Shown here: one piece after another, positions 2,521-54,363 of the stretch
How positions within the stretch are numbered: position 1 is the first letter of the stretch
Layout of the letters: every line of letters begins with the position of its first letter
Virus record (IMG/VR): IMGVR_UViG_3300031087_000457
Origin: an uncultured virus (IMG/VR IMGVR_UViG_3300031087_000457)
Lineage: Duplodnaviria > Heunggongvirae > Uroviricota > Caudoviricetes
Direction: 5' to 3' (one strand)
DNA length: 64,000 nt
Notes under the pieces: model-generated
The model's database searches: none
Told to the model about the DNA's origin: nothing
Seen by the model: only the letters and a program-made list of their open reading frames with translations
Position numbers and translations under genes: made by a program

Positions 2521-4653
2521 ATGGCGGAAGCTAAGGGTGCAGCGTACAGCGCCAATGACATGGACGAGGTGGACGACAAGGCCCACTACCGTATGCGTCC
2601 CAACCTCGTCTGGGGCGGAGAGCTCGGAAGCCCCGAGCGACCTTTCTCGACAATGCAGAGGACTGCCCTAAGGGAGATCTACGAAAATAGTGTAGACGAG
2701 GCGCTCCAGGGCCACGCGGACAAGATCTCGGTGCACCTCTTCGAGGATCACTCCTTCGAGGTCATCGACAATGGCCGTGGTCTCCCCACTGACATCAACA
2801 AGAAGACCGGCAAGTCCGGCATCTACCAGGCTCTGGGCACGCTGCGCTCCGGCCGTAACTTCGACTCAAGCGACGGCAAGAAGTCCACGGGAACCAACGG
2901 ACTGGGTGCATCTGCTGTCACGATCTTCTCGAAGCGCTTCGATGTGACGGTCTACCGGGGTGGAAAGCAGTACGAGCTTTCCTTCCGGGCCGGTGAGGCT
3001 GGAACCTTCGAGGGCGACGGACCGGATGCGGCCTTCTCGCCCATCAGCGATGTGTCCTACATGAAGATCTCCAAGGACGCTCGCCCCAAGGCAGAGCGCG
3101 AGGGCTGGGAAACCGGCACGAAGATCCGCGTGTGGTTCGATCCTGACGCCTTCCCCACCAACTACCACTACGACGACAACGAGATCGTCGAGCGCCTCAA
3201 GGGCACGGCCTTCCTCGTCCCCAACCTGAAGATCTTCGTCACCAACGAGCTCAACAGGACCGTGGATGAGCAGACCGGCGAGGTCACCATCCAGAAGGAG
3301 GTCTTCGACTTCCCCAATGGCTTCGGCGACATGGTGACGGCCTTCCAGCCCGACCAGCCCATCATCTCTGAGCCCGTCGTGCTCAACGGAACGGCGAAGC
3401 TCGTCACGAGGACTCCCGTGAAGCAGGCCGACGGCAACTTCAAGAACATGGATGTAGAGAAGGAGGTCCCCTACACGGTGGCCTTCTCCTACGGTAGTGG
3501 CTACGACAACTCGCTCCACACCTTCGTCAACACGGTGAACACTCGAGCCCACGGCTCCCACCTCACCGGTGTGCAGAACGCCATGGTGACTGCCTTCAAT
3601 GAGCGCTTCGACTCCATGCGAGGACTCCTCACCAAGAGCGACAGCCTCCCGAAGGTGGATGACTATCTCGAGGGCCTCACCCTGGTGGTGTCGATCTACC
3701 TGTCCTCGGCTCCCTTCACCTCTCAGTCCAAGGAGGCGATCTCCAGCCGACCCGTGCAGAAGTCCATCCAGGATGCTGTGGTGGAGGACTTCAAGAACTG
3801 GATCAAGGCTCCCGCCAATCAGGCCGACCTGAAGGCCATCGCGGCCAAGGTCACCACGGCTGCGAAGAACCGCCAGCAGGTACAGAACCAGCGGGATCTC
3901 CAGAGGCAGAAGAACGAGCTCAAGCAGAGCTCCCTGCCGGACTCACTCATCGACTGCGAGCTCTCGGGCACGGATGCTGCTGAGCTCTACATCTGCGAGG
4001 GAGACTCCGCTAAGACCTCCCTGAAGGCCGCCCGCGATGGTCGCATCAATGCGCTCCTCGGTGTGCGAGGTAAGATCATCAACGCCTACGGCAACAAGAA
4101 CAAGATGTCGGATGTGCTCAAGTCTAAGCCCGTCCAGGAGATCATCAAGGCTCTGGGCGCTGGAGCCGGCAGCGACTTCGACATCAACCAGGTTCGCTAC
4201 GGCAAGGTCTTCTTCGCGGTGGACGCCGATGTGGACGGCAACGCGATTGCCGTCGGCCTCTACGCGCTCTTCTGGGTGCTCTTCAGGCCCCTGGTGGAGG
4301 CTGGAAGGATCTACAAGATCGAGCCTCCCCTGTTCGCCATCCTCACGGATCAGGGCACGAAGTCCAAGAAGCACTACGCTCGAGACGACGCTGAGCGCGA
4401 TGTGGTCATGGCCAAGCTCCAGAAGCAGAACATCAAGTTCCGCGTGTCCCGGCTCAAGGGTCTCGGTGAGATGGAGGATGACGACCTCGAAGAGACCGCC
4501 ATCAACCCTCAGACTCGCATCATCACGCAGGTCACCACCAAGGATCTCGAGGCTGCTCGGCAGGCTCTGGACATCGCCATCGGCGATGATGTCTCGATCC
4601 GCAAGGCCTGGATCGAGTCCTCCGAGGTGGACGAGGAAGAGCTCCTCTCCTAG
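2521..4653 (+). CDS. gyrB: Type IIA topoisomerase B subunit (GyrB/ParE-like)
   Basis: GHKL motifs EIYENSVDE, DNGRGLP, GTNGLGAS; TOPRIM motifs EGDSA, RGKIIN, DADVDG; RLKGLGEM; AGGAG RBS. Confidence 0.93.
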   Translation: MAEAKGAAYSANDMDEVDDKAHYRMRPNLVWGGELGSPERPFSTMQRTALREIYENSVDEALQGHADKISVHLFEDHSFEVIDNGRGLPTDINKKTGKSGIYQALGTLRSGRNFDSSDGKKSTGTNGLGASAVTIFSKRFDVTVYRGGKQYELSFRAGEAGTFEGDGPDAAFSPISDVSYMKISKDARPKAEREGWETGTKIRVWFDPDAFPTNYHYDDNEIVERLKGTAFLVPNLKIFVTNELNRTVDEQTGEVTIQKEVFDFPNGFGDMVTAFQPDQPIISEPVVLNGTAKLVTRTPVKQADGNFKNMDVEKEVPYTVAFSYGSGYDNSLHTFVNTVNTRAHGSHLTGVQNAMVTAFNERFDSMRGLLTKSDSLPKVDDYLEGLTLVVSIYLSSAPFTSQSKEAISSRPVQKSIQDAVVEDFKNWIKAPANQADLKAIAAKVTTAAKNRQQVQNQRDLQRQKNELKQSSLPDSLIDCELSGTDAAELYICEGDSAKTSLKAARDGRINALLGVRGKIINAYGNKNKMSDVLKSKPVQEIIKALGAGAGSDFDINQVRYGKVFFAVDADVDGNAIAVGLYALFWVLFRPLVEAGRIYKIEPPLFAILTDQGTKSKKHYARDDAERDVVMAKLQKQNIKFRVSRLKGLGEMEDDDLEETAINPQTRIITQVTTKDLEAARQALDIAIGDDVSIRKAWIESSEVDEEELLS

Positions 4654-9591: not shown

Positions 9592-10063
9592 TGTTGCCTA
9601 TCGGCTATCCTCACAACTTCTGCAGCTGGATGACACTCGGAAGTAGCGACCAAGGAGCGACCAAAGCTGAAAACTTCAGAAAGATTCCCCTAGTTCTCCC
9701 GGAGTTCCCGGAGAAGCGTTCAGATCGAGAAACACACACAGCATAGATCATAGCACTTGTTCAGCAAAGCTACGGGAGCAGATCTCTAGAGTCATACACT
9801 CTAGCTACCTACTTACAGACTATAGAAAGATCCGGGAGAGAACGAGAAACCATGGGGTCAGCATCGGGAGCAAGGGCCGTCTCAGCGACAGCCTACGACG
9901 CTCTCAGCGCCTCAGATCGCCACTCCGTGTCGTCGTATGGCCTCGGAGTCTTGGGCCCTCAGATCTGCAGCTACTGCTTCAGCGCCGAAGAACGAGCTCA
10001 TCAGCTGAGCTACAGTCGGTACACTACTGATTCAAGCACCACTACAGGGAGAACGAGGTGAGG

Positions 10064-12388
10064 ATGGCGAAGCCCAAGGAGCGTAGGATCATCCTCCCCG
10101 ACTCCCTACCGCTCCCCGGAAGACGGCCCGGCCCAGCTGAGCGCAAGAGCGACGGCTACCTTGAACTCGCTTCCGCCCTGCGCTCTAAGGAGCTCCTCTC
10201 CGAGTGGCTTCCTGGTTCTGCTGGCGAGGCTACCTCCGAACTTCAGCTCCGAGAGGCCCTCACGAGGACCCTGAGCGAACATGCCTCCTTCGGCTACATC
10301 CGGGAGAACTCAAAGCTCCCCCACAGCCACCCCAAGGACAGCTCCAGGATCCACTACACCATGACTTCTCAGTCGGGGTCCTCTGAGTTCCTTCGGCCCA
10401 ATGGCACCGAGTGGCTCGGAGCCGCAAGCGCACCTCGCTCCGGCAACTGGTCCGTGATTCCTCAGCCCGGCAGTCGACTCCTGGTCTTCGACCTCGATGT
10501 GAGCAAGAGCTCCCTGGACAGCGAGGGGGAGGCCACCACCACAAGCGCAGATGAGCGCTTCTCCGAAGCTCGTCGGAGCTTGAGCTACCTCGAGGCTCTC
10601 CTAGAGATCGATCTTCGGGGAACCTACGCTCAGCTCTCACCCTCTGGAGGCATCCACATCTTCGTGCTCCTCCCCGAGGGTGTGGATCCCAGTGAGCTAC
10701 CGGCCGCCAAGATCTCAGACGGCATGAGAGAGCTCGCAGGAGTACCCCTAGAGCACCGGGAGAGCCACTTCCGGGGCGACATCCGCTCGGGAGCTTCCAA
10801 CGGCTTCATCCTCATGGCTGGATCTCGCATCCGCAGCGTCTCAGAGGGTCCCAGTAGCTACTACAGGCCTCTGGTGTCCGACCCTCGCTGGAGCGACTTC
10901 CGGGACTACAGGAGCGGCCGTAAGCTTCGGCTCCTTGAGCTCCCGCCCCCTGCAGTTGAGCGTCTTCGTCGGGCTCGCTCCATCGATCTCGCCACCAAGG
11001 CCCGGAGAACTCCCACCATTGCAGATCGATCCCGGCTTCGGCCGTCCGCAGATCTCATCGTCCTTCCGCGAACGACTCGAGAGCTCCAGAGCAGCAACTA
11101 CAAGAAGCTCATCGACAGGCTGGCAGCAGCCTCTCCTCGAAGCTACCACGCTGCTCGAGCCCACATCTACCGGGCGCTGAGCTGCTGCGCGAGCCCGGAG
11201 GCCATCGCTGAGCTCTGCCGGGATGCTGGCTACGGCAAGGATACTCACCGGGGCCGGGAGCTCTCGGACAGCGAGCTCCTCGCTGACATGGAGTCCATGG
11301 ATCGCCGGGGTTTCACCGCTCTGCGCTGCGGACCCCACTGCGGCGCCCTCTGGGGTGAGTCCACGGGCTCTGACAACCACAGAAGCGAGCTCGAAGCCCT
11401 CGTGGATGCCATCCGTTCGGCCAAGCTCCTGGATCGGGCTGAGCTCAGCGTCATGGACTACCAGCGCGTGGAAGAGTCCTCCCTCCTCGAGGCTCGGGCT
11501 ATTCTCCAGCGTCGCTCACAGCGCGAGGGCGACTACGGGCTCTACGGGAAGCGAAAGCCCACTGGGCTCAACTACCTCAGGGCCACTGAGGCCATCCTCG
11601 GAGAGAAGACCTTTGCTGCTCGCATGGCCGGAGAGGTTGTGGCCGTCGCTGGCTATCGACAGCGTGCCCTGGAGCTCACTCTCGGCTACTTCGCTCCTCT
11701 CTTCGCGGCTGGAGCATCTGCAGTCATCGCTCCTGCTGAAGAGCTCATGGCACGCTTCGGCTGGAGCCGCTCACAGCTCCGGGAGGCACTGCGACTCCTT
11801 CGAAGCATCTCGCTGATCTCCCTGGAGCACCGCCAGGTCACGGGCAAGAGCTCAACCTACGCACCCGGTGAGAGCCGATTCTTCGACTCCACTCTGAGCG
11901 CAAAGCTTCGAGCTGCCTGGGGTGAGTCCAAGGTTGAGAACAGCCGGGGAGAGAAGGCCTTCCTCGGTGGCTTCTTCGACTACGCCCGAGGCCGCATCGT
12001 CCGACCCGATGGGAGCAGCTTCACTGACAGCTACCTCCAGGAGATCGGTGGAAGCTACTCAGGGCTCCTGATCCATCTCGATCTGCACATCCCCCAGGGT
12101 TCGGCCTTTGGCTCATCCTTCGTGAAGCGCTACCTCTCCAAGGCGGTGGCTCGCCACCGGGAGCTCTCTAGCCCCGAGGCCGCTGCGGTTGAGAACCTGC
12201 GCGAGCTTGCCCGGAGTGGTCCTCTCGATGGCGGACTTCAGTCCATCGGGGAACAGTTCCTCCTCTTGGGAGCAAGGAAGCCCGAATCTCGTGAGGATAG
12301 GAGCGCATTCGATTTTGGAGTCACGATCCATGGTCGCTCTCTCTGGAGGCGCCGCGGTGATCGATCTCCAGCAGAGGATCCCGGTTAG
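10064..12388 (+). CDS. Prim-Pol (bifunctional primase-polymerase-like) replication protein with C-terminal HTH; candidate Rep
   Basis: LLVFDLDV, SPSGGIHIF, GDIRS, GFILMAGS motifs; winged-HTH-like EELMARFGWSRSQLREALRLL. Confidence 0.65.
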   Translation: MAKPKERRIILPDSLPLPGRRPGPAERKSDGYLELASALRSKELLSEWLPGSAGEATSELQLREALTRTLSEHASFGYIRENSKLPHSHPKDSSRIHYTMTSQSGSSEFLRPNGTEWLGAASAPRSGNWSVIPQPGSRLLVFDLDVSKSSLDSEGEATTTSADERFSEARRSLSYLEALLEIDLRGTYAQLSPSGGIHIFVLLPEGVDPSELPAAKISDGMRELAGVPLEHRESHFRGDIRSGASNGFILMAGSRIRSVSEGPSSYYRPLVSDPRWSDFRDYRSGRKLRLLELPPPAVERLRRARSIDLATKARRTPTIADRSRLRPSADLIVLPRTTRELQSSNYKKLIDRLAAASPRSYHAARAHIYRALSCCASPEAIAELCRDAGYGKDTHRGRELSDSELLADMESMDRRGFTALRCGPHCGALWGESTGSDNHRSELEALVDAIRSAKLLDRAELSVMDYQRVEESSLLEARAILQRRSQREGDYGLYGKRKPTGLNYLRATEAILGEKTFAARMAGEVVAVAGYRQRALELTLGYFAPLFAAGASAVIAPAEELMARFGWSRSQLREALRLLRSISLISLEHRQVTGKSSTYAPGESRFFDSTLSAKLRAAWGESKVENSRGEKAFLGGFFDYARGRIVRPDGSSFTDSYLQEIGGSYSGLLIHLDLHIPQGSAFGSSFVKRYLSKAVARHRELSSPEAAAVENLRELARSGPLDGGLQSIGEQFLLLGARKPESREDRSAFDFGVTIHGRSLWRRRGDRSPAEDPG

Positions 12389-14555: not shown

Positions 14556-15569
14556 ATGGCTAGATTCCACATCGCAGAGGACGGCACTCCCGGCGCCTGC
14601 AGGGCAAAGACCGTCGAGAGCTGCCCCAAGACCCAGGCAGGCGACGGATTCCACGGCACCCTGGAGGAAGCTCAGGTAGAGTCCGAGAGGCGCTTCGCTA
14701 AGGAGTTCGGGGAGATCCCCACCAACAGCAAGGGCAATGCTCCAGCAACCCGGGAAGCCGCTCTGGCCGCCAAGAAGAAGGAGCTCCAGGATTCCCGGGA
14801 CCGCTTCTCAGATTCTTCCACGACTGAGCCCGAGCGCAAGGCCATCGAGGCCTGGTGGAGGAAGCAGCAGATCGACTCTCCCTACGCGGCCATGAGCCGG
14901 GTTCAGGCCCTGGAGTTCCAGGAGAACCGCAAGAACCGCACTCGGGTTGAGAAGGCTCACTCCGCTCAGATCTTCGGAGCTCTCTCCCACGCCTCTCCCT
15001 ACAGCCAGGAGAACATGACCATGGGAGAGCGCATCGCCGCCGGAGCAGAGAAGAAGATCGAGCGAAAGGATCTCAGTAGCTCTCACGCTGAGCTCGCCAT
15101 GAACCTCGTGGCCTTCGCCTCGGATGCTGACAGGGACTACATCATCAACGATGTTGCAGAGCGTGACCTCCACCTCTTCGAGGGCCAGAGAAAGGGCTTC
15201 GGCAAGGGTGACTTCGCCGGGCTCGTCAAGGTCCACAGGGCAATGGTGGAGCGCTACGGCCAGGGCGCTGTTCACGCCAACCTCACCAATCAGCTCCCCG
15301 AGGATGTTCGCAACGAGTACCGGGAGGACGGCAATCGGGATGGCATCGGCTCTCTCCGCCCCTGGGGTCAGCCCTCCAACTCGATCCAGAACATCCACGA
15401 TGAAACAGCTCACATGCTCGCTCAGCATGTGATCGACAGCTACGGGCCTGAGAACGCTGAGAAGTTCTGGAGCGAGGCTTCCGCCACGACCGGCAACAAC
15501 CGGGCCACGCTTGCCAATGTCTTCAAGACCATGAGGAAGTTCAACAAGGAGCGAGGCATCAAGGGCTAG
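14556..15569 (+). CDS. Hypothetical protein with the shared His/Cys N-terminal tag
   Basis: MARFHIAEDGTPGACRAKTVESCP...FHGTLEEA; AGGAG RBS. Confidence 0.85.
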   Translation: MARFHIAEDGTPGACRAKTVESCPKTQAGDGFHGTLEEAQVESERRFAKEFGEIPTNSKGNAPATREAALAAKKKELQDSRDRFSDSSTTEPERKAIEAWWRKQQIDSPYAAMSRVQALEFQENRKNRTRVEKAHSAQIFGALSHASPYSQENMTMGERIAAGAEKKIERKDLSSSHAELAMNLVAFASDADRDYIINDVAERDLHLFEGQRKGFGKGDFAGLVKVHRAMVERYGQGAVHANLTNQLPEDVRNEYREDGNRDGIGSLRPWGQPSNSIQNIHDETAHMLAQHVIDSYGPENAEKFWSEASATTGNNRATLANVFKTMRKFNKERGIKG

Positions 15570-15622
15570 AGAAGGATCAAAGTGAGACCCTCGGGAGTCA
15601 ACAGAAGTTGATCCTGAGCGCG

Positions 15623-15659
15623 CAGCCTAGAGCATCGGTAGCTTCGATGCTCTAGGCTG
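15623..15659 (+). terminator. Hairpin downstream of the 14556 ORF
   Basis: cagcctagagcatcg...cgatgctctaggctg. Confidence 0.7.
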
Positions 15660-15725
15660 TTGCTCTGTGCGCTTGGAGCGAACTTTCAGAGGAATGCCAC
15701 TTCGTGATGGCGTTACCATAGGCGC

Positions 15726-16226
15726 ATGAAATCAACCGAAACCATCGCCGCTCAGGGCCGCGCTGCAACACAGGAAATCTTCGCCACTGCCCGGGGAGAC
15801 GAGCTCGACCGGATCATGGATCTGGGGCTACCCCGGAGCACCTTCGCCGGGCTTGCAGCTCGAGTCATCGTGCAGAAAAGTGCCGAGCCCCTTTTCCACT
15901 GCAAGTTCAAGGTTGAGCCCGGACTCTCCGGGCTCAAGCCTAGGCTCTTCATCGATGGAACGCTCACTGAGCTCCAGCAGGTAGCAGCTGTGGTCGAGGG
16001 CACTTTCGAGCTCGCCCGGCAGCTCTACCACTCCAGCGAGGACGACCGCTCGGACCTCGACGCCTGGCTCTCGGCAGACCTGCGCTCAGAGGTTCGAACC
16101 GTGGCTCCTGCCTTCATCGCCGTCTATGGTGATGATAGGTCGATGCTCAAGATCGGACCCTCTGATGCTCCCTGGGGGTTGGGGAGCTTCAAGGCCCTCA
16201 GAAGGTTGGTGCTCAAGGATGGCTAA
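15726..16226 (+). CDS. Hypothetical protein, overlaps the topA start
   Basis: ORF; TACCAT just upstream (possibly a leaderless transcript). Confidence 0.7.
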   Translation: MKSTETIAAQGRAATQEIFATARGDELDRIMDLGLPRSTFAGLAARVIVQKSAEPLFHCKFKVEPGLSGLKPRLFIDGTLTELQQVAAVVEGTFELARQLYHSSEDDRSDLDAWLSADLRSEVRTVAPAFIAVYGDDRSMLKIGPSDAPWGLGSFKALRRLVLKDG

Positions 16227-17577
16227 GAAGACACTCCTCCTCGTGGAGGCTCCCTCGAAGGCTCGCCACATCCAGCAGTTCCTAGGCAGCGACTACATCG
16301 TGAAGCCCACCGTGGGCCACTTCCGCGAGATGCCTCTGCCCCGGGACATGAAGCCCGCCGACAAGGCCAAGTACGGCGACTACGCCCAGGACACGGCTGG
16401 CAACTTTGAGGCTCTCTACAAGATCTCCAAGGATAAGACGAAGCTCGTCAGTGAGCTCAAGACCCTGCTCAAGTCGGTGGATGAGCTCGTCCTTGCCACC
16501 GACGCCGACGCCGAGGGTGCAGCGATCTCCTGGCACATCCTCCAGGAGCTCAAGCCCAAGGTTCCCACCTATCGAGCAACCTGGAACGAGATCACCGACC
16601 GGGCAGTCCGTGCGGGACTCGCGGCCAAGCAGCCCGTGGATGAGAAGAAGCAGCTGCCGGCCGACTTCTTCGGTCAGGTGGAAAGCGCCCTCGCCCGCAG
16701 CCAGTGGGATCGGCTCTTCGGCTATGGTGTCTCGCCCCTCATGTGGAAGATGGTTCGAAGTGGAACCTCCGGCGGCCGGGTCCAGACGCCAGGTACCAAG
16801 CTCGTCGTGGAGCGTGAGGAGCGCCGGCTCGCCTTCAAGAGCGTAGCCTTCTACACGATCTACGGCACCTTCGACGGCATCAAGGCCAAGCTCGTGGACA
16901 TCAACGGCAAGAAGATCGCGGATGCCTCGAAGATCGATGACGAGGGTAAGCTCGCAGCTGGCTACAGCCTGATCACAGACAAGAACCTGGAAGCCGTACT
17001 CAAGGCCCTGAAGGCCAAGAGCTACGAAGTCGGCGAGGTCAAGTCAAAGCCCTATCGGCGCACGCCTCCGCCTCCCTTCACCACATCCACAGCGCTTCAG
17101 TCCATCGGCTCGAAGACCCGCATGAGTGCGAAGCAGCTCACCGCCGTGCTCCAGTCGCTCTATGTGGGCACCCACTGCACCTACATCCGTACGGTCTCCG
17201 TGGAGGCAGCCCCCGAGGCCATCGTTGAGGCCCGGAAGGAGCTCAAGAGGCTCTTCGGGGCGAAGCTCGTACCCGCCAAGGAGCGTGTCCACAAGGACAA
17301 GAAGGCTGGCAACAGCGGCCACGAGTGCATCCGTCCTGTGCTCGACGACTCCAGCGGAAAGCTCGTCAATCCCAAGCTCTCGGGCAACGACCAGAAGGTC
17401 TTCGAGCTCATCCGGCTGCGATTCCTCGCATCTCAGTCCATCGACTGCGAGGGCACGACCTGGAGCACATCCTTCATCGCCACCGACGGCAAGGCCACCT
17501 TCCAGGCAAGCGAGACGGAGATCCACGAGCCCGGCTGGACCACGGTCTATGAGATGGACGATGAGGTCGGCGCCTGA
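16219..17577 (+). CDS. topA: DNA topoisomerase IA, N-terminal part (TOPRIM plus catalytic Tyr)
   Basis: LVEAPSKA, ATDADAEG, SGGRVQT, PPPFTTS, CTYIRT (catalytic Y), HECIRP; ends at GWTTVYEMDDEVGA*. Confidence 0.9.
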   Translation: MAKKTLLLVEAPSKARHIQQFLGSDYIVKPTVGHFREMPLPRDMKPADKAKYGDYAQDTAGNFEALYKISKDKTKLVSELKTLLKSVDELVLATDADAEGAAISWHILQELKPKVPTYRATWNEITDRAVRAGLAAKQPVDEKKQLPADFFGQVESALARSQWDRLFGYGVSPLMWKMVRSGTSGGRVQTPGTKLVVEREERRLAFKSVAFYTIYGTFDGIKAKLVDINGKKIADASKIDDEGKLAAGYSLITDKNLEAVLKALKAKSYEVGEVKSKPYRRTPPPPFTTSTALQSIGSKTRMSAKQLTAVLQSLYVGTHCTYIRTVSVEAAPEAIVEARKELKRLFGAKLVPAKERVHKDKKAGNSGHECIRPVLDDSSGKLVNPKLSGNDQKVFELIRLRFLASQSIDCEGTTWSTSFIATDGKATFQASETEIHEPGWTTVYEMDDEVGA

Positions 17578-18410
17578 TGCCTCAGGGTTGGCATGTGAAT
17601 CTCGAAACTGGAGAGCCCGGCGAGTGCAGGGCTCGAATCAGCTGCCCCTTCGGGAACGATGATCTGCACTTTGACACCGAGAGTGATGCTCGAAAGTTCT
17701 ATGAGGCGAAGATGAGCAAGTACACCCTTGCGGAGCTCGTTCAGAAGAGCAGGATGCGCTCTCCCTGGCGCAGTATCTCCTGGGAAGAGAGAAAGCAGCT
17801 ACTTCAGGCCTATGTTGATGAGCGAGTTCAGATCACCAGAAAGCTCAGAAAGAAGCGCATTCGCATCGACTGGCAGAATGTGGTCAATAGCAGCTTCGAT
17901 GTTCTAGGCTACGCAGACGAGGAAGCTCGCACGCTGAATCTTGCCGAAGGAGCGGAAGCCCTGGAGGAGACCAGCGTAAAGGCTCTGATCGTCCATGAGT
18001 TGGCCCATTTCCTTGAGCCCAGGCGCTCCAGCGAGGATCACGGAAAGAGCTGGCGCAGCGGCACCGAACTCCTTTCGAGCTCTGACGAAGACATCAGAAG
18101 CTTCAGTTTTCAGAAGAGTTCTCAACACAGTGTTCTAGAGGCACTGAGACGCGAAACACAGAAGCTTGAGCTCCGGGCGCCTAAACACATCGGGAAATGC
18201 GCTAGGGGTCACAGTTTCTACGCCAACATCATCCCCAGGGACACGAGCTGTAGTCTCTGTCGAGAGGATGTTCATTTTCAGAAGGACTACACCCTGTTCT
18301 CAGCTGTCGAATGGGACAGCTTCGATCTAGAATCTAGCGAGGGCCAAAAATTCATCGCTAACCAGCTTGGTAGGATGGGCTTCGGAAAGGAAAACAGAAC
18401 TCATGGATAG
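17577..18410 (+). CDS. SprT-like zinc metalloprotease with the shared His/Cys N-terminal tag
   Basis: LIVHELAH...DHGKSW; C-terminal CARGH...CSLC; ATG overlaps the topA-N stop. Confidence 0.75.
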   Translation: MPQGWHVNLETGEPGECRARISCPFGNDDLHFDTESDARKFYEAKMSKYTLAELVQKSRMRSPWRSISWEERKQLLQAYVDERVQITRKLRKKRIRIDWQNVVNSSFDVLGYADEEARTLNLAEGAEALEETSVKALIVHELAHFLEPRRSSEDHGKSWRSGTELLSSSDEDIRSFSFQKSSQHSVLEALRRETQKLELRAPKHIGKCARGHSFYANIIPRDTSCSLCREDVHFQKDYTLFSAVEWDSFDLESSEGQKFIANQLGRMGFGKENRTHG

Positions 18411-18717
18411 GATCGACTCAAGCGCTCTCACCGCGTTTCTCAGCTCGCTCAGGGAGCATAGCTACACAGAGCTGACGCCATCCGGCAGCGTCAATCGCTT
18501 CGACTCTACTACGGTCTCTTTTGACAGTAGTGGTCGCTTCCTTTGCTACACTACAGTCGAAGACGGAGTTCTCTACTCGTTCTACTCGGATCTTGAGCTC
18601 TATAGAGATAGCTCCGAAGGTGTGGCCGTCGCTACGGATGCGAGCGATTTCGACCTCATCAACGGTAGGCTCAAGACCGAACAGCATATCTTGGCCTTTG
18701 GTCCAAGCTTCGATTAG
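18403..18717 (+). CDS. Small hypothetical protein
   Basis: ATG overlaps the previous ORF end; AAGGA RBS. Confidence 0.6.
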   Translation: MDRIDSSALTAFLSSLREHSYTELTPSGSVNRFDSTTVSFDSSGRFLCYTTVEDGVLYSFYSDLELYRDSSEGVAVATDASDFDLINGRLKTEQHILAFGPSFD

Positions 18718-18732
18718 GCAGGGAGTCTCACC

Positions 18733-19800
18733 ATGGCAATAGCCATCAAGGAACTGAAGCAGGGCAGCCCCGCAAAGCTCACCCGACTCACCCAGGAGTC
18801 CCGGGAGACCCGACCACCGAACCGCTTCACCGAGGTCAGCCTCGCCAAGAAGCTCTCGGACCTTGGCATCGGCCGGCCCAGCACCCTGTCATCGATCATC
18901 TCAGTGATCCAGGACCGGGGCTATGTGAAGCGCCACGGAAGCCAGCTCTATCCCACGCCCCTGGGCTTCGCCATCGCCCGTGTGCTGACCTCCAAGTTTC
19001 CGGACTTCACCGACTATGGCTACACCGCGGCCATGGAGGAGGAGCTCGAGTCCATCGAGGAGGGCCAGAAGACTCGGCTTCAGTTCCTCGTGGACTTCTG
19101 GCGGGGCAAGAACGGCTTTGAGGCGCTCCTCGAGCTCCTCGGAAAGTCCGTCGACTTCGACGAGATCGGAAAGCTCACCACCATCGATCTCCACAATGGC
19201 TACGAGATCAAGGTCAATCGCTATGGAGCCTTCCTCCAGGATCCCAAGGCGGAGCCCAACGAGAAGGGCTACATCCCCTCGGCGAAGCTCGACGATGAGG
19301 CAGACCTCTGGGAGTACCGGGAGGCAGAGGCCTGCAAGACGCTCCTCGAGAACGCAACCAACGCCCAGGGTCCACGGGAGCTCGGAGTGCTGAAGTCCGG
19401 TGAGTATGAGGGCTACACGGTCTTCGCCAAGGACGGTAAGTTCGGCGCCTTCCTTCAGGCCGTGCACCCGAAGCAGATTGAGGCAGAGGCTGCTGGCAAG
19501 AAGCCCACGGCCAAGACTCCGAAGCCTGTGAACCAGAAGCTCCCCGAGGGCGCAGAGCTGGAGACAGTTGAGCTCAAGGATGTGGAGTCCCTCTTCGCAG
19601 AGGTCAAGCTTCCCCGGACCCTCTCTCCTCAGTTCTTCGTGGGCATCGGAAAGAGAGGCCCCTGGCTCGGTCGAAAGGCTTCGGCTAAGTCCAAGAGAGC
19701 TGTCTTTGTGAGCCTCCCCGAGGGTGCAGATCCCCGTACGATAGCTCTGGACGAGGCAGAAAAGATCTGGAAGGAAAAGCAAGACGCCAAGAAGAAGTAG
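18733..19800 (+). CDS. topA: DNA topoisomerase IA, C-terminal part (rest of the core plus C-terminal repeats)
   Basis: TRPPNRFTEVSL, LGIGRPST, QDRGYV, PTPLG, TAAMEEEL; repeats NRYGAFLQ, GKFGAFLQ, GKRGPWL; own GGGAG RBS. Confidence 0.9.
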   Translation: MAIAIKELKQGSPAKLTRLTQESRETRPPNRFTEVSLAKKLSDLGIGRPSTLSSIISVIQDRGYVKRHGSQLYPTPLGFAIARVLTSKFPDFTDYGYTAAMEEELESIEEGQKTRLQFLVDFWRGKNGFEALLELLGKSVDFDEIGKLTTIDLHNGYEIKVNRYGAFLQDPKAEPNEKGYIPSAKLDDEADLWEYREAEACKTLLENATNAQGPRELGVLKSGEYEGYTVFAKDGKFGAFLQAVHPKQIEAEAAGKKPTAKTPKPVNQKLPEGAELETVELKDVESLFAEVKLPRTLSPQFFVGIGKRGPWLGRKASAKSKRAVFVSLPEGADPRTIALDEAEKIWKEKQDAKKK

Positions 19801-19847
19801 CTCCTAGCGAGGCTGCGGGCCCTGCCATTCGATATAACGAAGTCGTT

Positions 19848-20663
19848 ATGATTCAGACCTTCAGAAAGCCTAGAACCATCCTACGAAAAACTACCACCAT
19901 CTCAGGGATCGCAGGCGCAACATTACTCCTCTCCCTCCTCGGTCCAACTGCTGCCTCCGCAGCCGAAGCCACCGACCAGCCCTCATCTTCTGCAGCCACT
20001 TCGAGCTCAGTTGAGATCACACCTGAGGCCCTAGCCCAGGTCAGTCAGCAGCAGATCTCCACGGCCAACAGCGGCACAGAGAAGTTCAGCGCCGCTGATC
20101 TCATGGCTCAGGTTCGAGACCAGATCGAGACCGATCGAGTGGACCGCGAGAAAAAGCGTGCAGAAGAGGCCCGGGCCAGGGCAGAGGCCGAAGCCAAAGC
20201 CAAGGCTAAGGCGGAGGCCGAGGCAAAGGCCAAGGCTGAAGCTGAGGCTGCCGCCAAGGCCAAGGCCGACGCGGAGGCTGCTGCAGCTGCCCAGGCTCAG
20301 CGAAGCACAGGTCGCTCTAGCTCTAGCTCTCCATCCACTTCCAGTAGATCGAGCACCCCGAGTTCCTCTCCTGTTTACACGGGTGGAGGCTCCAAGAACG
20401 ACTGGCTTGCAGCTTCCGGCATTCCCGAGAGCGACTGGGGCTATGTGGACTACATCGTGAGCCACGAGTCCGGCTGGAACCCTAACGCGGTCAACGCTAG
20501 CTCAGGCGCCGGTGGTCTCGTACAGGCACTGCCCTGCGGCAAGGTAGCTGGTGGATGCTTCGATCCAGTGTCCAACCTGAAGTGGGCCGATGGCTACGCC
20601 AAGGCTCGCTACGGATCCTGGGCCGGTGCCTACCAGTTCTGGTCCTCCAACCACTGGTGGTAA
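19848..20663 (+). CDS. Secreted lytic transglycosylase (SLT/aggregation-promoting-factor-like) with an Ala/Lys/Glu linker
   Basis: Signal peptide; HESGWNPNAVNASSGAGGLVQALP...RYGSW...NHWW. Confidence 0.85.
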   Translation: MIQTFRKPRTILRKTTTISGIAGATLLLSLLGPTAASAAEATDQPSSSAATSSSVEITPEALAQVSQQQISTANSGTEKFSAADLMAQVRDQIETDRVDREKKRAEEARARAEAEAKAKAKAEAEAKAKAEAEAAAKAKADAEAAAAAQAQRSTGRSSSSSPSTSSRSSTPSSSPVYTGGGSKNDWLAASGIPESDWGYVDYIVSHESGWNPNAVNASSGAGGLVQALPCGKVAGGCFDPVSNLKWADGYAKARYGSWAGAYQFWSSNHWW

Positions 20664-25864: not shown

Positions 25865-28441
25865 ATGAGTAACAGCCTCTTCAGCTCTGAGGCGGACGAT
25901 GACGAGCGCCGGGGCTCTGGCGCGGGAGACAAGGCTGTCACGAAGATCGTGGTCTTCATCCTCTGTCTTCCGCTGATCCCCGCGGGGCTCTTCGGCCTAC
26001 TGTTCTACTGGGTCTTCCTGCGCGTGCTCAAGTTCAAGCGCTCCGTGAGCGGCTTCGTCACCCTGCTCATGGTCGGGGGAGGATATCTTGCCTTCTCGGC
26101 CATGGGCGGTATTTCTGCGGCCGTTGAGGTCTTCACAGGCTCCGGTGGCATTATCGAGAATTGGATGACGCTTGTCTACCTTCTCATTCCTCTTTCGGTG
26201 GGTCTCGGGTCGCTCTTCGGCTACGGTCTGATCCTCTGGGATGTGCGAGACATCCACAACAATCCCCACCGGGTAGAGCTCCCGGGCTTCTGGACCTACA
26301 ACATCCGCTGGAGGAAGACTCCCCTGGAGCTCCTCAAGAAGCGCAGGGCTATCAAGGCGCTGCAGCGCGGAAGCCTCATCGATGATGAGCGAGCTCCCCT
26401 GGGCTACGAGGAGGACGCTGACCGGGTGGCCTACCGATTCACCGAGGAATCCGTTAGGCACACCCTGGTCACCGGTGCTGCAGGTTCTGGTAAGACCATC
26501 TCCATGCTCTCCATGATGCGGGCTGACATTGAGTCGGGCCGTACGGTCATCGCAGTTGACTTCAAGCGCTCTCCTGAGTTTGCCGCAAAGCTCGCGGCCT
26601 GGAGCAATGAGTTCGGAGTTCCCTTCTACCACTTCGAGAAGGGGAAGCCGGAGTCCTACCGCATCGAGCACTCCCTGGGTCAGTCCACCTACGACCCCTT
26701 TGCTTCCGGTTCTGGCTCTGAGATGGTGCTCAACATGCGCGAGTACGACACCAACTCAGCTGTCTACAAGGAGGCCATGCAGCAGCTCCTCCAGGTCGTC
26801 TTCGCCATGATGGAGCAGGCCGACCGCTCCAAGGCTCCCCGGGTCGACTGGAGCCATGGAGGAATCTACCAGCTCGCATCGGCCATCACCGACCCAAACC
26901 TCAAGGATCTCCTGGTGGCGGTGGAGGGTCAGCCGATCTTCCCACAGGCTCAGGACTATGTGCCTCTGGCCACCGCCGCCAAGGGGCCCGAGCGAGACGC
27001 CCTGGAAAAGCTCCGCGGACAAATGCGGACAATCGTCGCTTCAGCCTATGGTCGCTGGTTCAAGATCGGCGATGGCTCTAGGAACATCGATCTTCTTCGG
27101 ATGATGACCGGAGACCAGACAATCGTGCTCTTCAGCTTCAACTCTGAGGATGAGCCCGAGCTATCCAAGTATGTGGGCTCCATGATCTTCGCCGACCTGC
27201 GTGCCTGTTCGAGCCACATTCGAGCCCGCAAGGCAAGCAAGATCACCAATGTCTATGTGGACGAGTTCCAGGCTGTGCCCCCTACAGCGGTCAACGGTCT
27301 CCTCGAGAAGGCCCGTGAGTCGAAGATCGCCATGACTCTGGCTCAGCAGGCCTTTGAGCAGATCATCACATCCTCTGCCTCCAACGGTGAGGCCTACCTC
27401 CAGTCTATCCTCGTGACCTGCTCCAACTTCCTTACCCATGCGGGTATGACTCAGGACTCCGCAGAGCGAATCTCGAAGCTCCTCGGAAAGCACTGGAAGA
27501 CCGTCTACAGCCGCACCAACAAGTCCGATGGAGGATTCCTCAAGAACAACTTCGGCAACCGGCGCAACCAGATCGTTTCAGCCAACAAGCAAGAGGTCTG
27601 GAAGGTTGAGCCCGCGGAGTTCATGGCTCTCTCTGCTCCATCTTCGGGCAACGGCTACAAGTCCACGGCCATCCTCGTCAACAAGGCCGTCTCAGACCCC
27701 GATGTGGAGACAGAGGGAACGCTGGCTCGAAAGCTCTGGATGATTCCTCCGGCCACAGTTCTGGAAGAATATGTACCACCCTACATCGGTGACGAGGTTG
27801 ATCCCAATGCTCAGAAGCTCTATGTGGACAGCCAGGTCAGCCTGATCACAGAGGAAGAGGCCGCTCTTCAGAAGTCCTACGAGGATAACACTCCTGTCTA
27901 CCGGGAAGACAGCGAGCTCATCTACGGCCCTGGCCGGGGCTCCAATGTGCTTCAGGAAGAGCTCGCTGATTCTCTCTTCGCCGAGGAAGAGGCCTTCGAG
28001 GACTTCGGAGCGAGCTATGACGATGACGACGAGAGCGATGGCGCTTTCGAGATTGAGCCCATCGAGGCTCCCAACTCCCGGGAGTCCCTGGAGAACGATC
28101 TCGCCGCCTTCGATAGCGCGACTCCGGTGCGAAAGATCGAGCGCAAGCTCTCCTCGGCCCGAAGGATAGCTGAGCCTCGAGAGCAGCAGGTCCCGCAGGA
28201 AAGCCCCCGTGCTCAGCGGCCGGCTGAGCCCTCGAGATCTCCTCTAGGTCGGTCTGAACCGACTCGAGCTCAAGCCGCCTCTCAGGGTGAGCCGAGGGCG
28301 CTGAAGACCCGTGAGGCCCTTCCTCCAGTAGCTCCCGTGAGGGCGAGCGAGGATCTTCCCCTTCCAAGGCTCGGCAGAACAGCACCTCGAGCTCCTCAGC
28401 TCCAGAAGCACTACGAAGAAGAGAGCCTTCCGGATATCTGA
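25865..28441 (+). CDS. Type IV coupling protein (VirD4/TraD-like)
   Basis: Three N-terminal TM helices; Walker A GAAGSGKT; Walker B YVDEFQ; LLEKARES...LAQQ. Confidence 0.85.
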   Translation: MSNSLFSSEADDDERRGSGAGDKAVTKIVVFILCLPLIPAGLFGLLFYWVFLRVLKFKRSVSGFVTLLMVGGGYLAFSAMGGISAAVEVFTGSGGIIENWMTLVYLLIPLSVGLGSLFGYGLILWDVRDIHNNPHRVELPGFWTYNIRWRKTPLELLKKRRAIKALQRGSLIDDERAPLGYEEDADRVAYRFTEESVRHTLVTGAAGSGKTISMLSMMRADIESGRTVIAVDFKRSPEFAAKLAAWSNEFGVPFYHFEKGKPESYRIEHSLGQSTYDPFASGSGSEMVLNMREYDTNSAVYKEAMQQLLQVVFAMMEQADRSKAPRVDWSHGGIYQLASAITDPNLKDLLVAVEGQPIFPQAQDYVPLATAAKGPERDALEKLRGQMRTIVASAYGRWFKIGDGSRNIDLLRMMTGDQTIVLFSFNSEDEPELSKYVGSMIFADLRACSSHIRARKASKITNVYVDEFQAVPPTAVNGLLEKARESKIAMTLAQQAFEQIITSSASNGEAYLQSILVTCSNFLTHAGMTQDSAERISKLLGKHWKTVYSRTNKSDGGFLKNNFGNRRNQIVSANKQEVWKVEPAEFMALSAPSSGNGYKSTAILVNKAVSDPDVETEGTLARKLWMIPPATVLEEYVPPYIGDEVDPNAQKLYVDSQVSLITEEEAALQKSYEDNTPVYREDSELIYGPGRGSNVLQEELADSLFAEEEAFEDFGASYDDDDESDGAFEIEPIEAPNSRESLENDLAAFDSATPVRKIERKLSSARRIAEPREQQVPQESPRAQRPAEPSRSPLGRSEPTRAQAASQGEPRALKTREALPPVAPVRASEDLPLPRLGRTAPRAPQLQKHYEEESLPDI

Positions 28442-37321: not shown

Positions 37322-40300
37322 GTGAGTCAATCCATGAGAGGTTCGAGCTACCTGGGTAGCACTCCCAAGAGCGCCCTCAGCAGGCCTCGGCGCTTTGGAT
37401 CCCTGGCCGCTCTGCTCATGGTCTTTGCCGTGATGCTCTCCACCTTCGCCACCATCCCGCTGATCGATTCCCTCATGGGCTCATCGAAGGATGGTGCCAT
37501 CAGCTCCGCCTCCGCCATGTGGTGCGCCGACCCCAAGCAGGGTGAGCTCGGCGTAGGCATGAACAGCAAGAGCAACTGGAACGGTGGCTCCTCTCGCTAT
37601 GTGCACGATGACACCTCAGGTCGCATCCTAACGGCCCAGGAAGCCTTCGGCAATGGTGTGAGGTTCACTAACTTCGCGGGCGCAGGAGAGGGACAGGAGT
37701 GGCTTTTCGGGGCAGCTCCCCTGGGCCTTCCCGAGAAGGATGACGACAAAGATGAGAAGCTCAAGTCCGTAGTCTCCTACACGGGTAACACCCCCAAGGG
37801 TGAGGGCACGGAGAACTGGTATAAGAACATGAACAGCTCCCGGGTGCCCACCAAGTGTGTGCTCGGTGGAGCTGGAACGCTCATGGCAAGCGGCATCCTG
37901 GGACTCTCCGGGAGCATCACCAACCTCATGGGTGGCATCTCGACCTTCGCCTTCGACCCTAACTTCATCTGTGAGCCCAACGAGCCCCAGGGCAACTGCA
38001 TCGACCTCGTGGGCATCATCGGTGGAGCCGGCAAGAGCGATCAGGGCATCATCGGTAAGCTCACCTCAAGCGTCTACTTCCCCCTCCTCACCCTGGTGGC
38101 TCTCCTGGTGGGTGTCTACATCATCTGGAACGGCCTGGCCAAGAGGCAGTTCCGCCAGACCTTCATCGGAGTGCTCTGGGCCGTCGTGGTCACAATCCTC
38201 GGCATCGGCCTTCTTCTCAACCCTCTCCTCCTCGCTAAGGCTCCCATGGTAGCCGGCAACGCGCTGACGAGCTGCATCGTGGGCGCTTTCACAGGAAGCG
38301 GTGGCTGTGCAGATGGCTCCGGAGGCACCGGCAGCTCAGATCCACAGACGGCTCTCTGTGAGGCCTGGTCCAGCAAGACCGACTTCGTGGACAAGGCTTC
38401 CATCACCATGACCTCAATGGGCTGCCAGCTCTGGAAGGCCTTCGTTCTCCAGCCCTACGCCCAGGGCTCCTTCGGTGCTCCCCTGGACGAGCTCGACACG
38501 AGCCGTTCGGACACCATCGCCGGCAAGCTCATCGCAAAGAACCCGGGCTTCGACAAGACCACCTTCTGCGTGGACACCAAGGTCAAGGGCAAGCTCGACA
38601 GCCACTACGGCAACACTCTGGATCTCACCAAGAGCGGCGCTCAGATCTGCAACCTCGCTGTCTACCAGGCCTACCTGGGCGTGAACGCTAAGATGGACAG
38701 TGGAGCTGGAGGAAACCCGCCTGCTGCTGGAGAGATCGACGCTCGCTGGCTCAAGGTCGCACAGCTCGCTGCCACTGACGAGGGCATGTACCGATCCTGG
38801 GCTCCCAGCGACATGCACCTTGCTCAGATCGGCTACGCTTCCCTGGGCCTACTCTCCGCATTCCTTGCGGCCATCGTGGTCTTCGTGGTCTCAGCCTTCG
38901 CGCTGGCCTTCTATGTGACCTCGATCCTCATGCTCGCCTTCGCACCCTTCTTCCTCCTCGTCGGAGTCCACCCGGGCAAGGGTAAGAGTATGATGATCGG
39001 CTGGATCGGGCAGGTGCTCTCCAACATTATGAAGTACGCTGCTTCTGCGATCTTCCTGGTCATCACCGTAGCGCTCTACAGCGCAACGCTCTCCAATGTG
39101 ACCAACCCGGGCGCAATCTTGATCTTCATGATTATCCTGACCGTGGCTCTCCTCATGTACCGCAAGGAGATCGTGGACATGATCGGAGTCATCGATCTCG
39201 GAGGAGAGAAGCTCTCCAACAAGTTCGGTGAGTGGACCAAGGACCGTCTCGGCAATGTGGGTAAGACCGCGATGGCAGTCGGAGCCGGTGTGACCGCAGG
39301 CGCCCTGTCCAACGGTGCTCTCAACCCCATGCGCAAGGAGAACTGGACCGTCGGGGGCGTTCGCCGAAACCTGGGAGATTCCTTCAGGGCTGGAAACGAC
39401 TCCTTCAGGCGCAGCGTCAAGAGCCGCCCTGGCATGGTTGGCGAAGTGATGAAGGCCAGCGACCGTATCTCTGCTGACAACCGGGCAGACATGGTTCGCC
39501 AGTCCACCGCTGTAACCAAGGAAGCTCAGACTGCCGAGAGGGAGCTCTCCAACGCCAAGAAGACCGGTAAGGATCTCGCGTCCTCCTTCTCCGCCAACGA
39601 GAAGGACGCACAGACAAGGATCGACGCCCTTCGGGTTGAGAATGAGACTGCCGACAAGAGTCTCCTCCAGAGCGAAAAGCTCATGGGTGAGGTTTCCGGC
39701 GCCGAAGACATCGCGCTCGCAGGTGTGGGCAGCGATGCCTTCAGGCAGTACCAGGATCTCGTCAACCAGCTCCGGGATCTCAAGATCAAGGCAGAGGTCG
39801 CGGTAGCAAACGGCGACAGCGAAGGAGCCGAGAGGCTCAACGCCAGCGCCGCTACCATCGCGAGCGGCATCGAGAGCGCCCGGTCCAACATGAGCGATCA
39901 GGAGTTCGCTGCCGGTAGAAGCCAGTACCGCTCTATCCTCGCAGAGAACATCCAGGACCCTCTGGTCAACGAGAAGAACGCTGAGAACCACGCAAACCAG
40001 GTGGCTAAGGTCTACGGCAATGACATGAGCACCCTCGCTCGTACCGCCCGTGAGGCCGAGGAGATCAGCTCTACGAAGGCTACAACCGAGGCTGATCTCA
40101 ACAGGAAGATCGCGGAGAACGCTCAGAAGACCATTGAGGCTCAGCGTGCGGCCGACAGGCTGGGTAAGGCGGCAGAGGTTGCTCGTCAGGAGGTCATCGA
40201 TCTCAAGCCCGGACAGTCCGTAACCAACAAGAGCGTCCGGGAGAAGGCCAAGAGGATCGAAGATATCCGCAACGGCGGAGATGAAGACCAGTCAGCTGCC

Positions 40301-53145: not shown

Positions 53146-54363
53146 ATGCTGAACTTCGTCAACGACCCATTTTGGAACAGCTGCCTGCAATCGCTCGCAA
53201 GGCCTGGAGCCTCGGAGTTCGTTGCCAACGGCCCCGACAGCTTCTTCGTGACCTATCAGGGAAAGAAGGAGCGCATTCCAGCTCCAGCTGGCATGAACCT
53301 GCGAAGCTACTCAGAGACCCTGGAGAAGAACATCGTTCCTCTCGTAGCCTCGCGAATGAACTTCGATCCCGATGGCTACATCTTCGAGGGCCATTACAAG
53401 GCCGATGCTGGAGGGGGAAACTCCTTCGAGGGAAGATGCCACATCGCACTCTCGCCCATCGCGGAAATCCCCTACATCACCATGACCAAGATCGCCTCAA
53501 CTTCGAGCACCATCGAGAGCATCGCGGAGTCGGGCTCCATGAGCACTGAGATGATGCAGTTCCTGATCATGGCGGTCCGCGCAAAGCTCACCATCGTCCT
53601 CTCTGGGCAGTCGGGCGCTGGAAAGACCACCACCCTGCAGGCACTGTCGAAGTACTTCAATGAGCAGGATCGCATCGGCGTGGCTGAGGACATCCCCGAG
53701 CTCTCCTTCCCCCAGTCCAATGTGACCTACCTGCACACGCTTCCCCCTCGCCCCGGGCTTGACCCGAACCTTGTGGCGGACCTTTCCTTCATCGTTAAGC
53801 AGTGGCTTCGAATGCGTCCGGACCGTGGAATCATCGGTGAGTCTCGAGGAAAGGAGTTCGCCGACTTCCTCGTGGCAGCCAACGCTGGTATGAGAGGATC
53901 GCTGACCACCATCCACGCCAGCGATCCATCGGGCGCCCTGGACAAGATGACTCGCTTTGCCCTGGCAGGGTCCGAGAGGCAGCCCATCCGGTCCATCAAC
54001 AAGGAGATCGGCTCAGCGGTGGATCTCGTCGTTCAGCTCGCACGCATCGACGGCAAGCACCGGGTGACCCACATCGAGGAAGTCACGAGCACCGTGAGCA
54101 ACACCGAAGATGCTCGACTCTCCTCGGAGACGCTCTACGAGTACATGCCTGAGACCGACAACTGGAGGAAGTCTGGAGTCCTCTCGGACAGACTTCGCAA
54201 GGAGCTCACTTCCGCTGGCATCGACATCAAGCCCTTCACTTCAGGCGCCGTTGGAACGATGCTTCCGAAGCACAATCCCGCCAGGGCTAACCCCAACAGC
54301 AACAACGGCGGAGGTTTCTCAGGAGAAAATCCTTTCAGAAGCGGACCAGGAAGGTCTATCTGA
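53146..54363 (+). CDS. CpaF/TadA (VirB11-like) secretion ATPase
   Basis: SGQSGAGKTT, EDIPEL, LRMRPDR.IIGESRG, TTIHA. Confidence 0.9.
   Translation: MLNFVNDPFWNSCLQSLARPGASEFVANGPDSFFVTYQGKKERIPAPAGMNLRSYSETLEKNIVPLVASRMNFDPDGYIFEGHYKADAGGGNSFEGRCHIALSPIAEIPYITMTKIASTSSTIESIAESGSMSTEMMQFLIMAVRAKLTIVLSGQSGAGKTTTLQALSKYFNEQDRIGVAEDIPELSFPQSNVTYLHTLPPRPGLDPNLVADLSFIVKQWLRMRPDRGIIGESRGKEFADFLVAANAGMRGSLTTIHASDPSGALDKMTRFALAGSERQPIRSINKEIGSAVDLVVQLARIDGKHRVTHIEEVTSTVSNTEDARLSSETLYEYMPETDNWRKSGVLSDRLRKELTSAGIDIKPFTSGAVGTMLPKHNPARANPNSNNGGGFSGENPFRSGPGRSI

Follow-up and report, generated by a model that had tools for sequence, protein, structure and literature searches.

In the 64,000-nucleotide record of an uncultured virus analysed here (IMG/VR IMGVR_UViG_3300031087_000457; the whole stretch is hereafter called the window), topA, the gene for a type IA topoisomerase, is divided between two open reading frames (ORFs) lying 1155 nt apart. 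The upstream ORF (N-half) ends with ...YEMDDEVGA followed by TGA, and the downstream ORF (C-half) starts from its own ATG, so that the usual TopA architecture of a single polypeptide gives way to two ORFs, separated by a stop and started independently. Pfam searches matched the N-half to Toprim (5-124, E = 3e-17) and to positions 5-288 of the Topoisom_bac profile, and the C-half to positions 297-410 of the same profile and to Toprim_C_rpt (E = 7e-11). The N-half holds the TOPRIM domain (D1), the N-terminal helices of D4, strands 1-5 of D2 and D3 with the catalytic Tyr322 (codon 17182-17184); the C-half holds strand 6 of D2, the remainder of D4 with the GRPST motif (18871-18885), C-terminal domains of the Topo_C_Rpt type and a basic tail. 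Only both ORFs jointly cover the complete D1-D4 toroid. A first-pass annotation, made from the letters of the sequence without database searches, had proposed that topA was split, with the C-half resuming about 1.15 kb on behind its own ribosome-binding site, and the ORFs, the Pfam matches and the AGGGAG motif all agree with it (Table 1).

The interval between the halves is filled by two further ORFs. The first, of 277 amino acids (aa), begins with an ATG overlapping the N-half stop (TGATG), which bears out the earlier suggestion that the insert is coupled to translation of the N-half. Its HExxH motif lies at 17994-18008; the match to the Pfam SprT-like family was weak (E = 0.002, 18.4 bits, under the 25.6 cut-off), and comparison with the Atlas gave a feature score of 0.91 to SprT-like clusters and structure matches with TM <0.5 by query. 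The second, of 108 aa, had no match in Pfam or PHROG. The lower use of C/G-ending codons noted earlier for the insert was also recovered, with a GC content at third codon positions (GC3) of 0.63 and 0.62 in the 277- and 108-aa ORFs versus 0.84 and 0.80 in the N- and C-halves, yet a neighbouring transglycosylase gene has a similarly low value (0.65).

Table 1 Features of the window (positions in nucleotides of the window).
Feature	Position	Strand	Evidence or remark
Putative TopA N-subunit (452 aa)	16219..17577	+	Pfam; alignment to M. tuberculosis and E. coli TopA
Acidic C-terminal tail of the N-half, N-side remnant of the D2 front loop	17539..17574	+	Tail comparison
Cargo gene, 277 aa: ~50-aa Cys/His leader (17577-17738), SprT-like HExxH metalloprotease, C-terminal Cys cluster	17577..18410	+	
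Cargo gene, 108 aa, no family	18391..18717	+	
Ribosome-binding site AGGGAG of the C-subunit, ATG 7 nt on	18720..18725	+	Sequence
Putative TopA C-subunit (355 aa)	18733..19800	+	Pfam; alignment to M. smegmatis, M. tuberculosis and E. coli TopA
Another gene headed by the Cys/His leader, its C-terminal part unrelated	14556..15569	+	Leader at 14556-14714
GyrB-like type II topoisomerase subunit	2521..4653	+	38% homolog on G001
VirD4/TraG-like coupling protein	25865..28441	+	36% homolog on G001
TrbL/VirB6	37322-41494		Conjugation marker
T2SSE ATPase	53146-54363		Conjugation marker

To place the break on known topoisomerases, the halves were aligned to cellular enzymes. The N-half aligned to residues 20-474 of Mycobacterium tuberculosis TopA and 3-437 of Escherichia coli TopA, and the C-half to residues 490-840 of M. 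smegmatis TopA (6PCM), 495-613 of M. tuberculosis TopA and 454-556 of E. coli TopA. The break thus corresponds to the 474/495 gap of the M. tuberculosis enzyme, or to 410/423 in Thermotoga maritima TopA coordinates, and the halves are, as originally proposed, contiguous TopA segments from either side of an acidic loop. Residues T474-R488 of M. tuberculosis TopA are disordered in PDB 8CZQ (PMC9841409), and the loop has been placed between strands 5 and 6 of D2 (PMC10969213, section 5). By alignment, the break is therefore located in the disordered acidic front loop between these two strands. The distance from the GW motif to the GRP motif, counted over both halves, is 60 residues, compared with 59-71 in single chains, and therefore little or nothing has been lost.

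The locus is not a misassembly, since contigs from two other sequencing runs extend across both junctions: one from run X2 covers 17487-19122 with 38 differing letters and no gap, and one from run X3 covers 17532-18854 with 0 differences. Both runs are other than X1, the possible source run of the record, and may themselves belong to one campaign. In a second X3 contig, the end of the N-half is joined to the start of the C-half by a short spacer that still holds a stop.

The split proved to be the rule in a whole family of relatives. In a protein-cluster search with the N-half, stand-alone N-halves of 393-463 aa made up the top 72 of the best 120 clusters listed (51-93% identity), after which identity fell to ordinary TopA at ~39%. 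Stand-alone C-halves likewise made up the top 72 of the best 120 listed ahead of a similar drop, in a search whose query alignment already included 6 of the 72 clusters found. Nearly all N-half clusters (71/72) stop at the loop, 8-22 residues past the GW motif, and 70/72 C-half clusters start 42-58 residues ahead of GRP. When 73 N and 72 C clusters were compared, 33 N/C pairs shared the same longest-contig size, and distances among N-halves and among C-halves in 32 pairs were strongly correlated (Mantel rho 0.80, reached in 0/2000 permutations). At the DNA level, the N-half stops at the same loop in 17/17 metagenome loci and is followed by a C-half in 16 of them, the contig of the remaining one (L015) ending too soon. 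A complete relative of 419,707 bp (G001) has one topA match, and this is split. The comparison of relatives thus returned the same loop throughout, with differing spacer contents.

As a control, we considered type IA loci other than these, drawn from virus and genome collections; 231/237 of them were continuous across the break point, in a set that holds repeats from two overlapping scans; the split is therefore not due to chance. Among the remaining six, three lie at a contig edge, two are frameshift-like and one (L018) is a family member split at the same place. The two frameshift-like cases (L186 and L224), which have stops near the site in assembled genomes, were not counted as splits.

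Both halves carry the marks of a maintained enzyme. Residues D95, D97, Y322, R324 and H368 are present in 73/73 N-half rows and E10 in 72/73, with Y322 and R324 aligning to the M. tuberculosis catalytic motif; in the C-half, G47, R48, P49 and T51 are invariant (G-R-P-x-T in 24/24 rows). Approximate ratios of nonsynonymous to synonymous substitution rates (dN/dS) were 0.012-0.205 for the N-half and 0.035-0.183 for the C-half (7 pairs each), compared with 0.106-0.302 for dnaG (5 pairs) and 0.154-0.304 for thyX (3 pairs). The earlier impression that both halves are intact accordingly held up, and the relaxed selection or misassembly that it had raised as counter-indications was not what these comparisons returned. 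A gene in decay or already dead, interrupted by a recent insertion or by an assembly error, would be in keeping with the recent look of the insert (GC3 lower than in the halves) and with the existence of single-chain relatives. Its probability is nevertheless next to nil, given that the split predates the insert and spans 51-98% identity, that both halves evolve at dN/dS at or below that of dnaG, that the catalytic residues of the N-half are invariant, and that X2 and X3 contigs cover both junctions.

One position of the N-half departs from cellular enzymes throughout the family. Residue 161 (window 16699-16701), the second Arg of the R-R-x-x-D-R helix in cellular TopA, is A, S or G in 73/73 members, and residue 163 is Trp in 71. 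In cellular TopA this Arg contributes to the selection of cytosine at -4, and the cleavage-site preference of the family may differ from that of cellular TopA.

The severed loop is itself conserved at the new C-terminus. With one exception (72/73), N-halves end 8-22 residues after GW with a tail containing at least two D/E, and 45/72 tails end in EVGA, so that a loop which varies among single chains here forms a conserved free C-terminus. The codons of the EVGA tails show synonymous changes between loci and are followed by any of the stop codons, and the conservation therefore acts at the protein level. One reading of this pattern is that the cut is adaptive and was selected repeatedly: severing the acidic front loop, a proposed gate for T-segment entry, would leave a free tail, with the main-subclade tail held to D-(D/E)-E-V-G-A-COOH as a movable gate, a docking peptide or a degradation tag, and the spacer serving as a protected slot for polymorphic effectors carrying the leader domain described below. 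We consider this doubtful, if well short of far-fetched. If true, giant conjugative elements would gain a topoisomerase whose processivity differs or whose assembly from two parts is regulated, and a spacer inside an indispensable operon would shelter an undescribed family of leader-domain polymorphic effectors.

Spacer lengths and frames bear on whether a single chain could be restored by recoding or splicing, through stop readthrough, bypass of the T4 gene-60 type, an intron or a split intein. In 16 loci, the spacers measure -1, 3, 27, 27, 28, 28, 28, 28, 119, 211, 211, 336, 339, 1594, 2724 and 5350 nt, with -1 to 28 nt in 8/16, and fall into the three reading frames in 6, 8 and 2 loci. Restoration of one chain could draw on the six in-frame spacers, on L018, where the halves are separated by a single in-frame TAA and 18 nt containing AGGGAGG, and on the fact that inteins do invade topA. 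However, 10/16 spacers are out of frame, L002 and L008 have near-identical spacers of 27 versus 28 nt in different frames, all three stop codons are used among N-halves, and the longer spacers hold whole genes. The C-halves have their own start codon, and purine-rich sites precede most of the related starts. An Rfam search of the window matched no family and thus no intron, and no intein ends were found at the break, in line with the first-pass annotation, which had seen no intron or intein signature. This explanation is accordingly highly unlikely. The intein-bearing relative, known as protein only (P0271), is a split N-half with a ~575-aa intein (Hom_end + LAGLIDADG_3) placed directly ahead of the invariant Ser of the SGRVQ motif, away from the break.

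Predicted structures offered a further view of the halves. AlphaFold modelled the N-half alone with a pTM (predicted TM score) of 0.51 and left residues 184-207 unfolded. P0272, a relative that is naturally a single chain and shares 54% and 45% identity with the N-half and C-half, gave a full TopA fold (pTM 0.85) in which the helix at 188-204 was ordered, the loop at 451-460 was the weakest internal block, and residues 478-485, corresponding to the C-half, formed a strand. The comparison fits a C-subunit that would complete both the D2 barrel and D4, and is only suggestive.

We conclude that the two ORFs very probably encode the subunits of one working heterodimeric bacterial-type topoisomerase I, whose binding and activity we infer from sequence. 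The functional heterodimer proposed in the first-pass annotation thereby gains good, if indirect, support, because both halves are conserved family-wide, are under purifying selection and are co-inherited, and because the break lies in a disordered loop. Both subunits would be translated from one operon, and the C-subunit would contribute strand 6 to the D2 barrel along with the greater part of D4, packing onto the N-subunit and rebuilding the toroid with a G-segment groove built from both chains. The tyrosine of the N-subunit would then cut and rejoin DNA, relaxing negative supercoils on a conjugative element of 0.4-0.8 Mb. The alternative that the halves are kept for separate jobs, with the N-half a cleavage enzyme, the C-half a single-stranded-DNA-binding protein and no stable dimer, takes its appeal from the fact that binding is deduced in our analysis. 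We regard it as very unlikely, given that the break cuts across two domains (D2 and D4), that a D4 helix is unfolded in the N-half model but ordered in that of P0272, that the halves stay adjacent, in the same order and co-inherited, and that the fused state recurs within the family.

Several points weigh against the heterodimer and should temper its acceptance. Synonymous divergence is near saturation in several pairs (dS 0.5-1.7), making the dN/dS values rough; L005/L006 and L009/L010 are near-copies among the loci; the genomic context of most protein clusters is deduced, with the split of the sister clade seen in DNA for L018 only. The N-half and P0272 models used different alignments, and the gap in confidence may partly reflect alignment depth. 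The host and plasmid nature of the element are likewise deduced, the grounds being its gene content together with the nearest named TopAs, which are of Micrococcales (41%).

Phylogenies indicated that the split and fused states have interchanged repeatedly. The N-half tree was built without P0071, which is truncated, and after thinning by 14 of the closer N-half clusters. In it, 59 split rows formed a clade with strong support that had two fused rows nested within it and five fused rows as its sister; in the C-half trees, the sister clade mixed stand-alone halves with fused ones. On a quick tree (LG+G4) that was run after earlier trees had been seen, the state changed at least seven times and a single clade of split forms was rejected (approximately unbiased test, p = 1e-69); P0455 and P0124 were treated as fragments, P0455 being counted as continuous in this analysis. 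Such counts do not tell fission from re-fusion, although the linker of the fused P0123 resembles a read-through spacer and points to re-fusion in that case. Short spacers suggest that the split originated by point changes; most likely, the break came about through stop or indel changes of a simple kind within the loop, the ribosome-binding site forming from leftover loop DNA, and would have been gained or reversed several times. Passengers, here the protease gene and the small ORF, would later have settled in the spacer and be expressed from the same operon.

The distribution of the insert supports this order of events. The N-half of L008 is 98% identical to that of the window and is followed by a 28-nt spacer without a protease; L001 and L002 have spacers of 27-28 nt, and insert-less split forms occur in run X3 alongside the insert form. 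The gene was thus already split, and the insert dropped into an existing spacer. The notion of a tolerated insertion site, also put forward in the first-pass annotation, fits the insert and fails for the order, the insert having entered after the split. Other loci carry other cargo: an ADP-ribosyltransferase-domain gene in L016, a weakly papain-like gene in L011, and in L004 a homolog (58%) of the 108-aa ORF of the window, standing alone. In L003 (2998-8142), a 1714-aa RHS-repeat protein with DUF6531 lies between the topA halves. Pfam detected no homing endonuclease in the 11 spacer ORFs of relatives that were scanned, a subset of all their spacer ORFs, or in the two ORFs of the window, although one that has since been lost is conceivable.

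These data also address the suggestion that the SprT-like protease is a dedicated partner, clearing trapped topoisomerase-DNA adducts or processing the subunits. SPRTN, of the eukaryotic SprT-family proteases, degrades DNA-protein crosslinks, including trapped topoisomerases, and the translational coupling to the N-half (TGATG), the HExxH motif and the SprT-like fold signal lend the analogy some appeal. Yet the protease domain (residues 60-277) was not hit at E<=1 in any of 18 related loci and was absent from the complete relative G001, L008, L001 and L002 keep the split with 27-28-nt spacers, insert-less split forms accompany the insert form in X3, and the same leader also heads ADP-ribosyltransferase, RNA-ligase and papain-like domains. 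The idea is largely refuted by this distribution and is extremely unlikely; a dedicated role in topoisomerase repair is not supported by the sequences compared. Judged by the same comparison, the insert genes are exchangeable passengers lying outside the enzyme. The protease gene would be a member of an accessory family that is polymorphic and possibly effector-like, and the 108-aa ORF may be its immunity-type partner.

The leader of the 277-aa ORF recurs well beyond the spacer. This ~50-aa Cys/His domain heads 27 ORFs in 294 kb (two in the window and 25 in L002-L016) and has three matches on G001. Residues H6, G12, C17, C23 and E43 are invariant in 12 rows, with H31 nearly so, and the C-terminal partners are SprT-like, ADP-ribosyltransferase (2), RNA ligase, weakly papain-like and YunG-like. 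Neither Pfam nor PHROG gave a family for the leader, and the Atlas features yielded no usable match; a zeta-toxin cluster is among its structure neighbours in the Atlas. The leader has the look of a polymorphic effector or targeting domain not described before. Separately, in L005 (12513-15121), two similar minus-strand genes (382 and 393 aa) with signal-peptide-like starts are inserted after the C-half, and form another variable site beside topA.

Topoisomerase I is taught as a single-chain enzyme. The closest counterparts of the halves are the TopAs of actinobacteria, which gave the best sequence matches (M. tuberculosis 5D5H and 8CZQ, M. smegmatis 6PCM; E 3e-73 and 8e-39 for the two halves) and the top Foldseek hits for both, and which share the domain order, catalytic residues and Toprim_C_rpt. 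They are, however, single chains encoded on chromosomes, whereas the enzyme described here is ~35-41% identical to them, cut into two chains in the front loop and carried by a giant element.

Split type IA enzymes are already known. Topo III of Nanoarchaeum equitans (NeqTop3; NEQ045 + NEQ324) is reported to be an active two-gene heterodimer (PMC4200833) with subunits of 408 and 172 aa (PMC10969213, table), and Topo III is not split in Nst1 (PMC3655853). Like NeqTop3, the enzyme here is a naturally two-gene type IA topoisomerase, in this case conserved and co-inherited. Because our break corresponds to 410/423 of T. maritima TopA, the NeqTop3 lengths would fit a cut in the same loop, and the two may, judging by length, share a split site. 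In contrast, NeqTop3 is an archaeal Topo III of one reduced cell lineage with genes apparently far apart (numbers 045 and 324), whereas the present family is a bacterial-type Topo I of about 70 clusters with adjacent genes in one operon, a cargo-filled spacer and repeated changes of state. In Methanopyrus kandleri reverse gyrase, the topoisomerase IA module is also divided between two subunits (PMC4117796), but that enzyme has a helicase module and introduces positive supercoils, and neither half here contains a helicase.

Essential enzymes made as two polypeptides with foreign DNA between their genes are likewise known from phages, in T4 gene 39/60 with mobA, Aeh1 nrdA with mobE and Aeromonas phage gene 43A/43B (PMC2988022). 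The case of phage 25/44RR, in which the gene may have been split before an endonuclease entered it (PMC2988022), parallels the present locus. A difference is that the 11 + 2 spacer ORFs scanned here include no homing endonuclease and that 8/16 of our spacers are <=28 nt. In the literature covered, which included few subscription papers, neither these elements nor a bacterial-type TopA split throughout a family had been reported; in its sequence features the family conforms to bacterial Topo I in all but being a single chain. The split type IA cases that we found in the literature are archaeal one-offs, whereas here the split is the rule, always in one loop, and flips between states. The authors of the T-segment structure proposed that the acidic loop regulates DNA entry and stated that its role needs study (PMC9841409); the split family provides a natural test of this role, as well as a natural cut site for labelling two parts of TopA separately. 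It also carries a warning, in that split halves would be annotated as pseudogene fragments.

As for the element itself, the window encodes GyrB, DnaG, ThyX, a glutaredoxin-like protein, a sigma-70 region, an SbcC-like ATPase and PhoH, along with a VirD4-like protein, TrbL/VirB6, a T2SSE ATPase, TadE and NikA, the last five of which mark a conjugative element. Relatives lie on contigs of up to 828 kb, and G001, filed in IMG/VR, is complete with direct terminal repeats; no Terminase_6N match was found on it, although one terminase family gives little power to tell the element from a phage. The three runs in which most of the window is present are phyllosphere metagenomes. From the gene content and the nearest named TopAs, the element would be a giant conjugative element of Actinomycetota.

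Scans of viral contigs, for which the N-half or an alignment of it served as query, found no relative. In GTDB genomes, an N-half pattern gave 17 matches, 0 of them confirmed, and a second scan returned distant, ordinary-looking TopAs only (best 80). The best N-half match was 36.6% in plasmids and 32.1% in phages, and the coupling protein had weak matches to three plasmids. No family member was thus found in GTDB, PLSDB or the phage set searched, and split topA may serve as a marker for this family of 0.4-0.8 Mb elements, which, judging by their genes, have their own GyrB, TopA, DnaG, ThyX, sigma factor, SbcC-like ATPase, PhoH and conjugation genes.

Two minor features of the window deserve mention. 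A 776-aa ORF (10058-12388), conserved in L002, L005 and L012, showed a weak GntR-type helix-turn-helix; its N-terminus, which had no Pfam hit, reads as primase-polymerase-like, and the ORF is possibly the replication initiator of the element. Around topA, no sigma-70-type promoter or plus-strand terminator was predicted in 15400-20000, a result that is uninformative for this host. Upstream of the N-half, an intergenic stretch of ~60 nt (15610-15675) matched several other contigs in runs X1-X3 and is probably a repeated element such as a promoter or a repeat.

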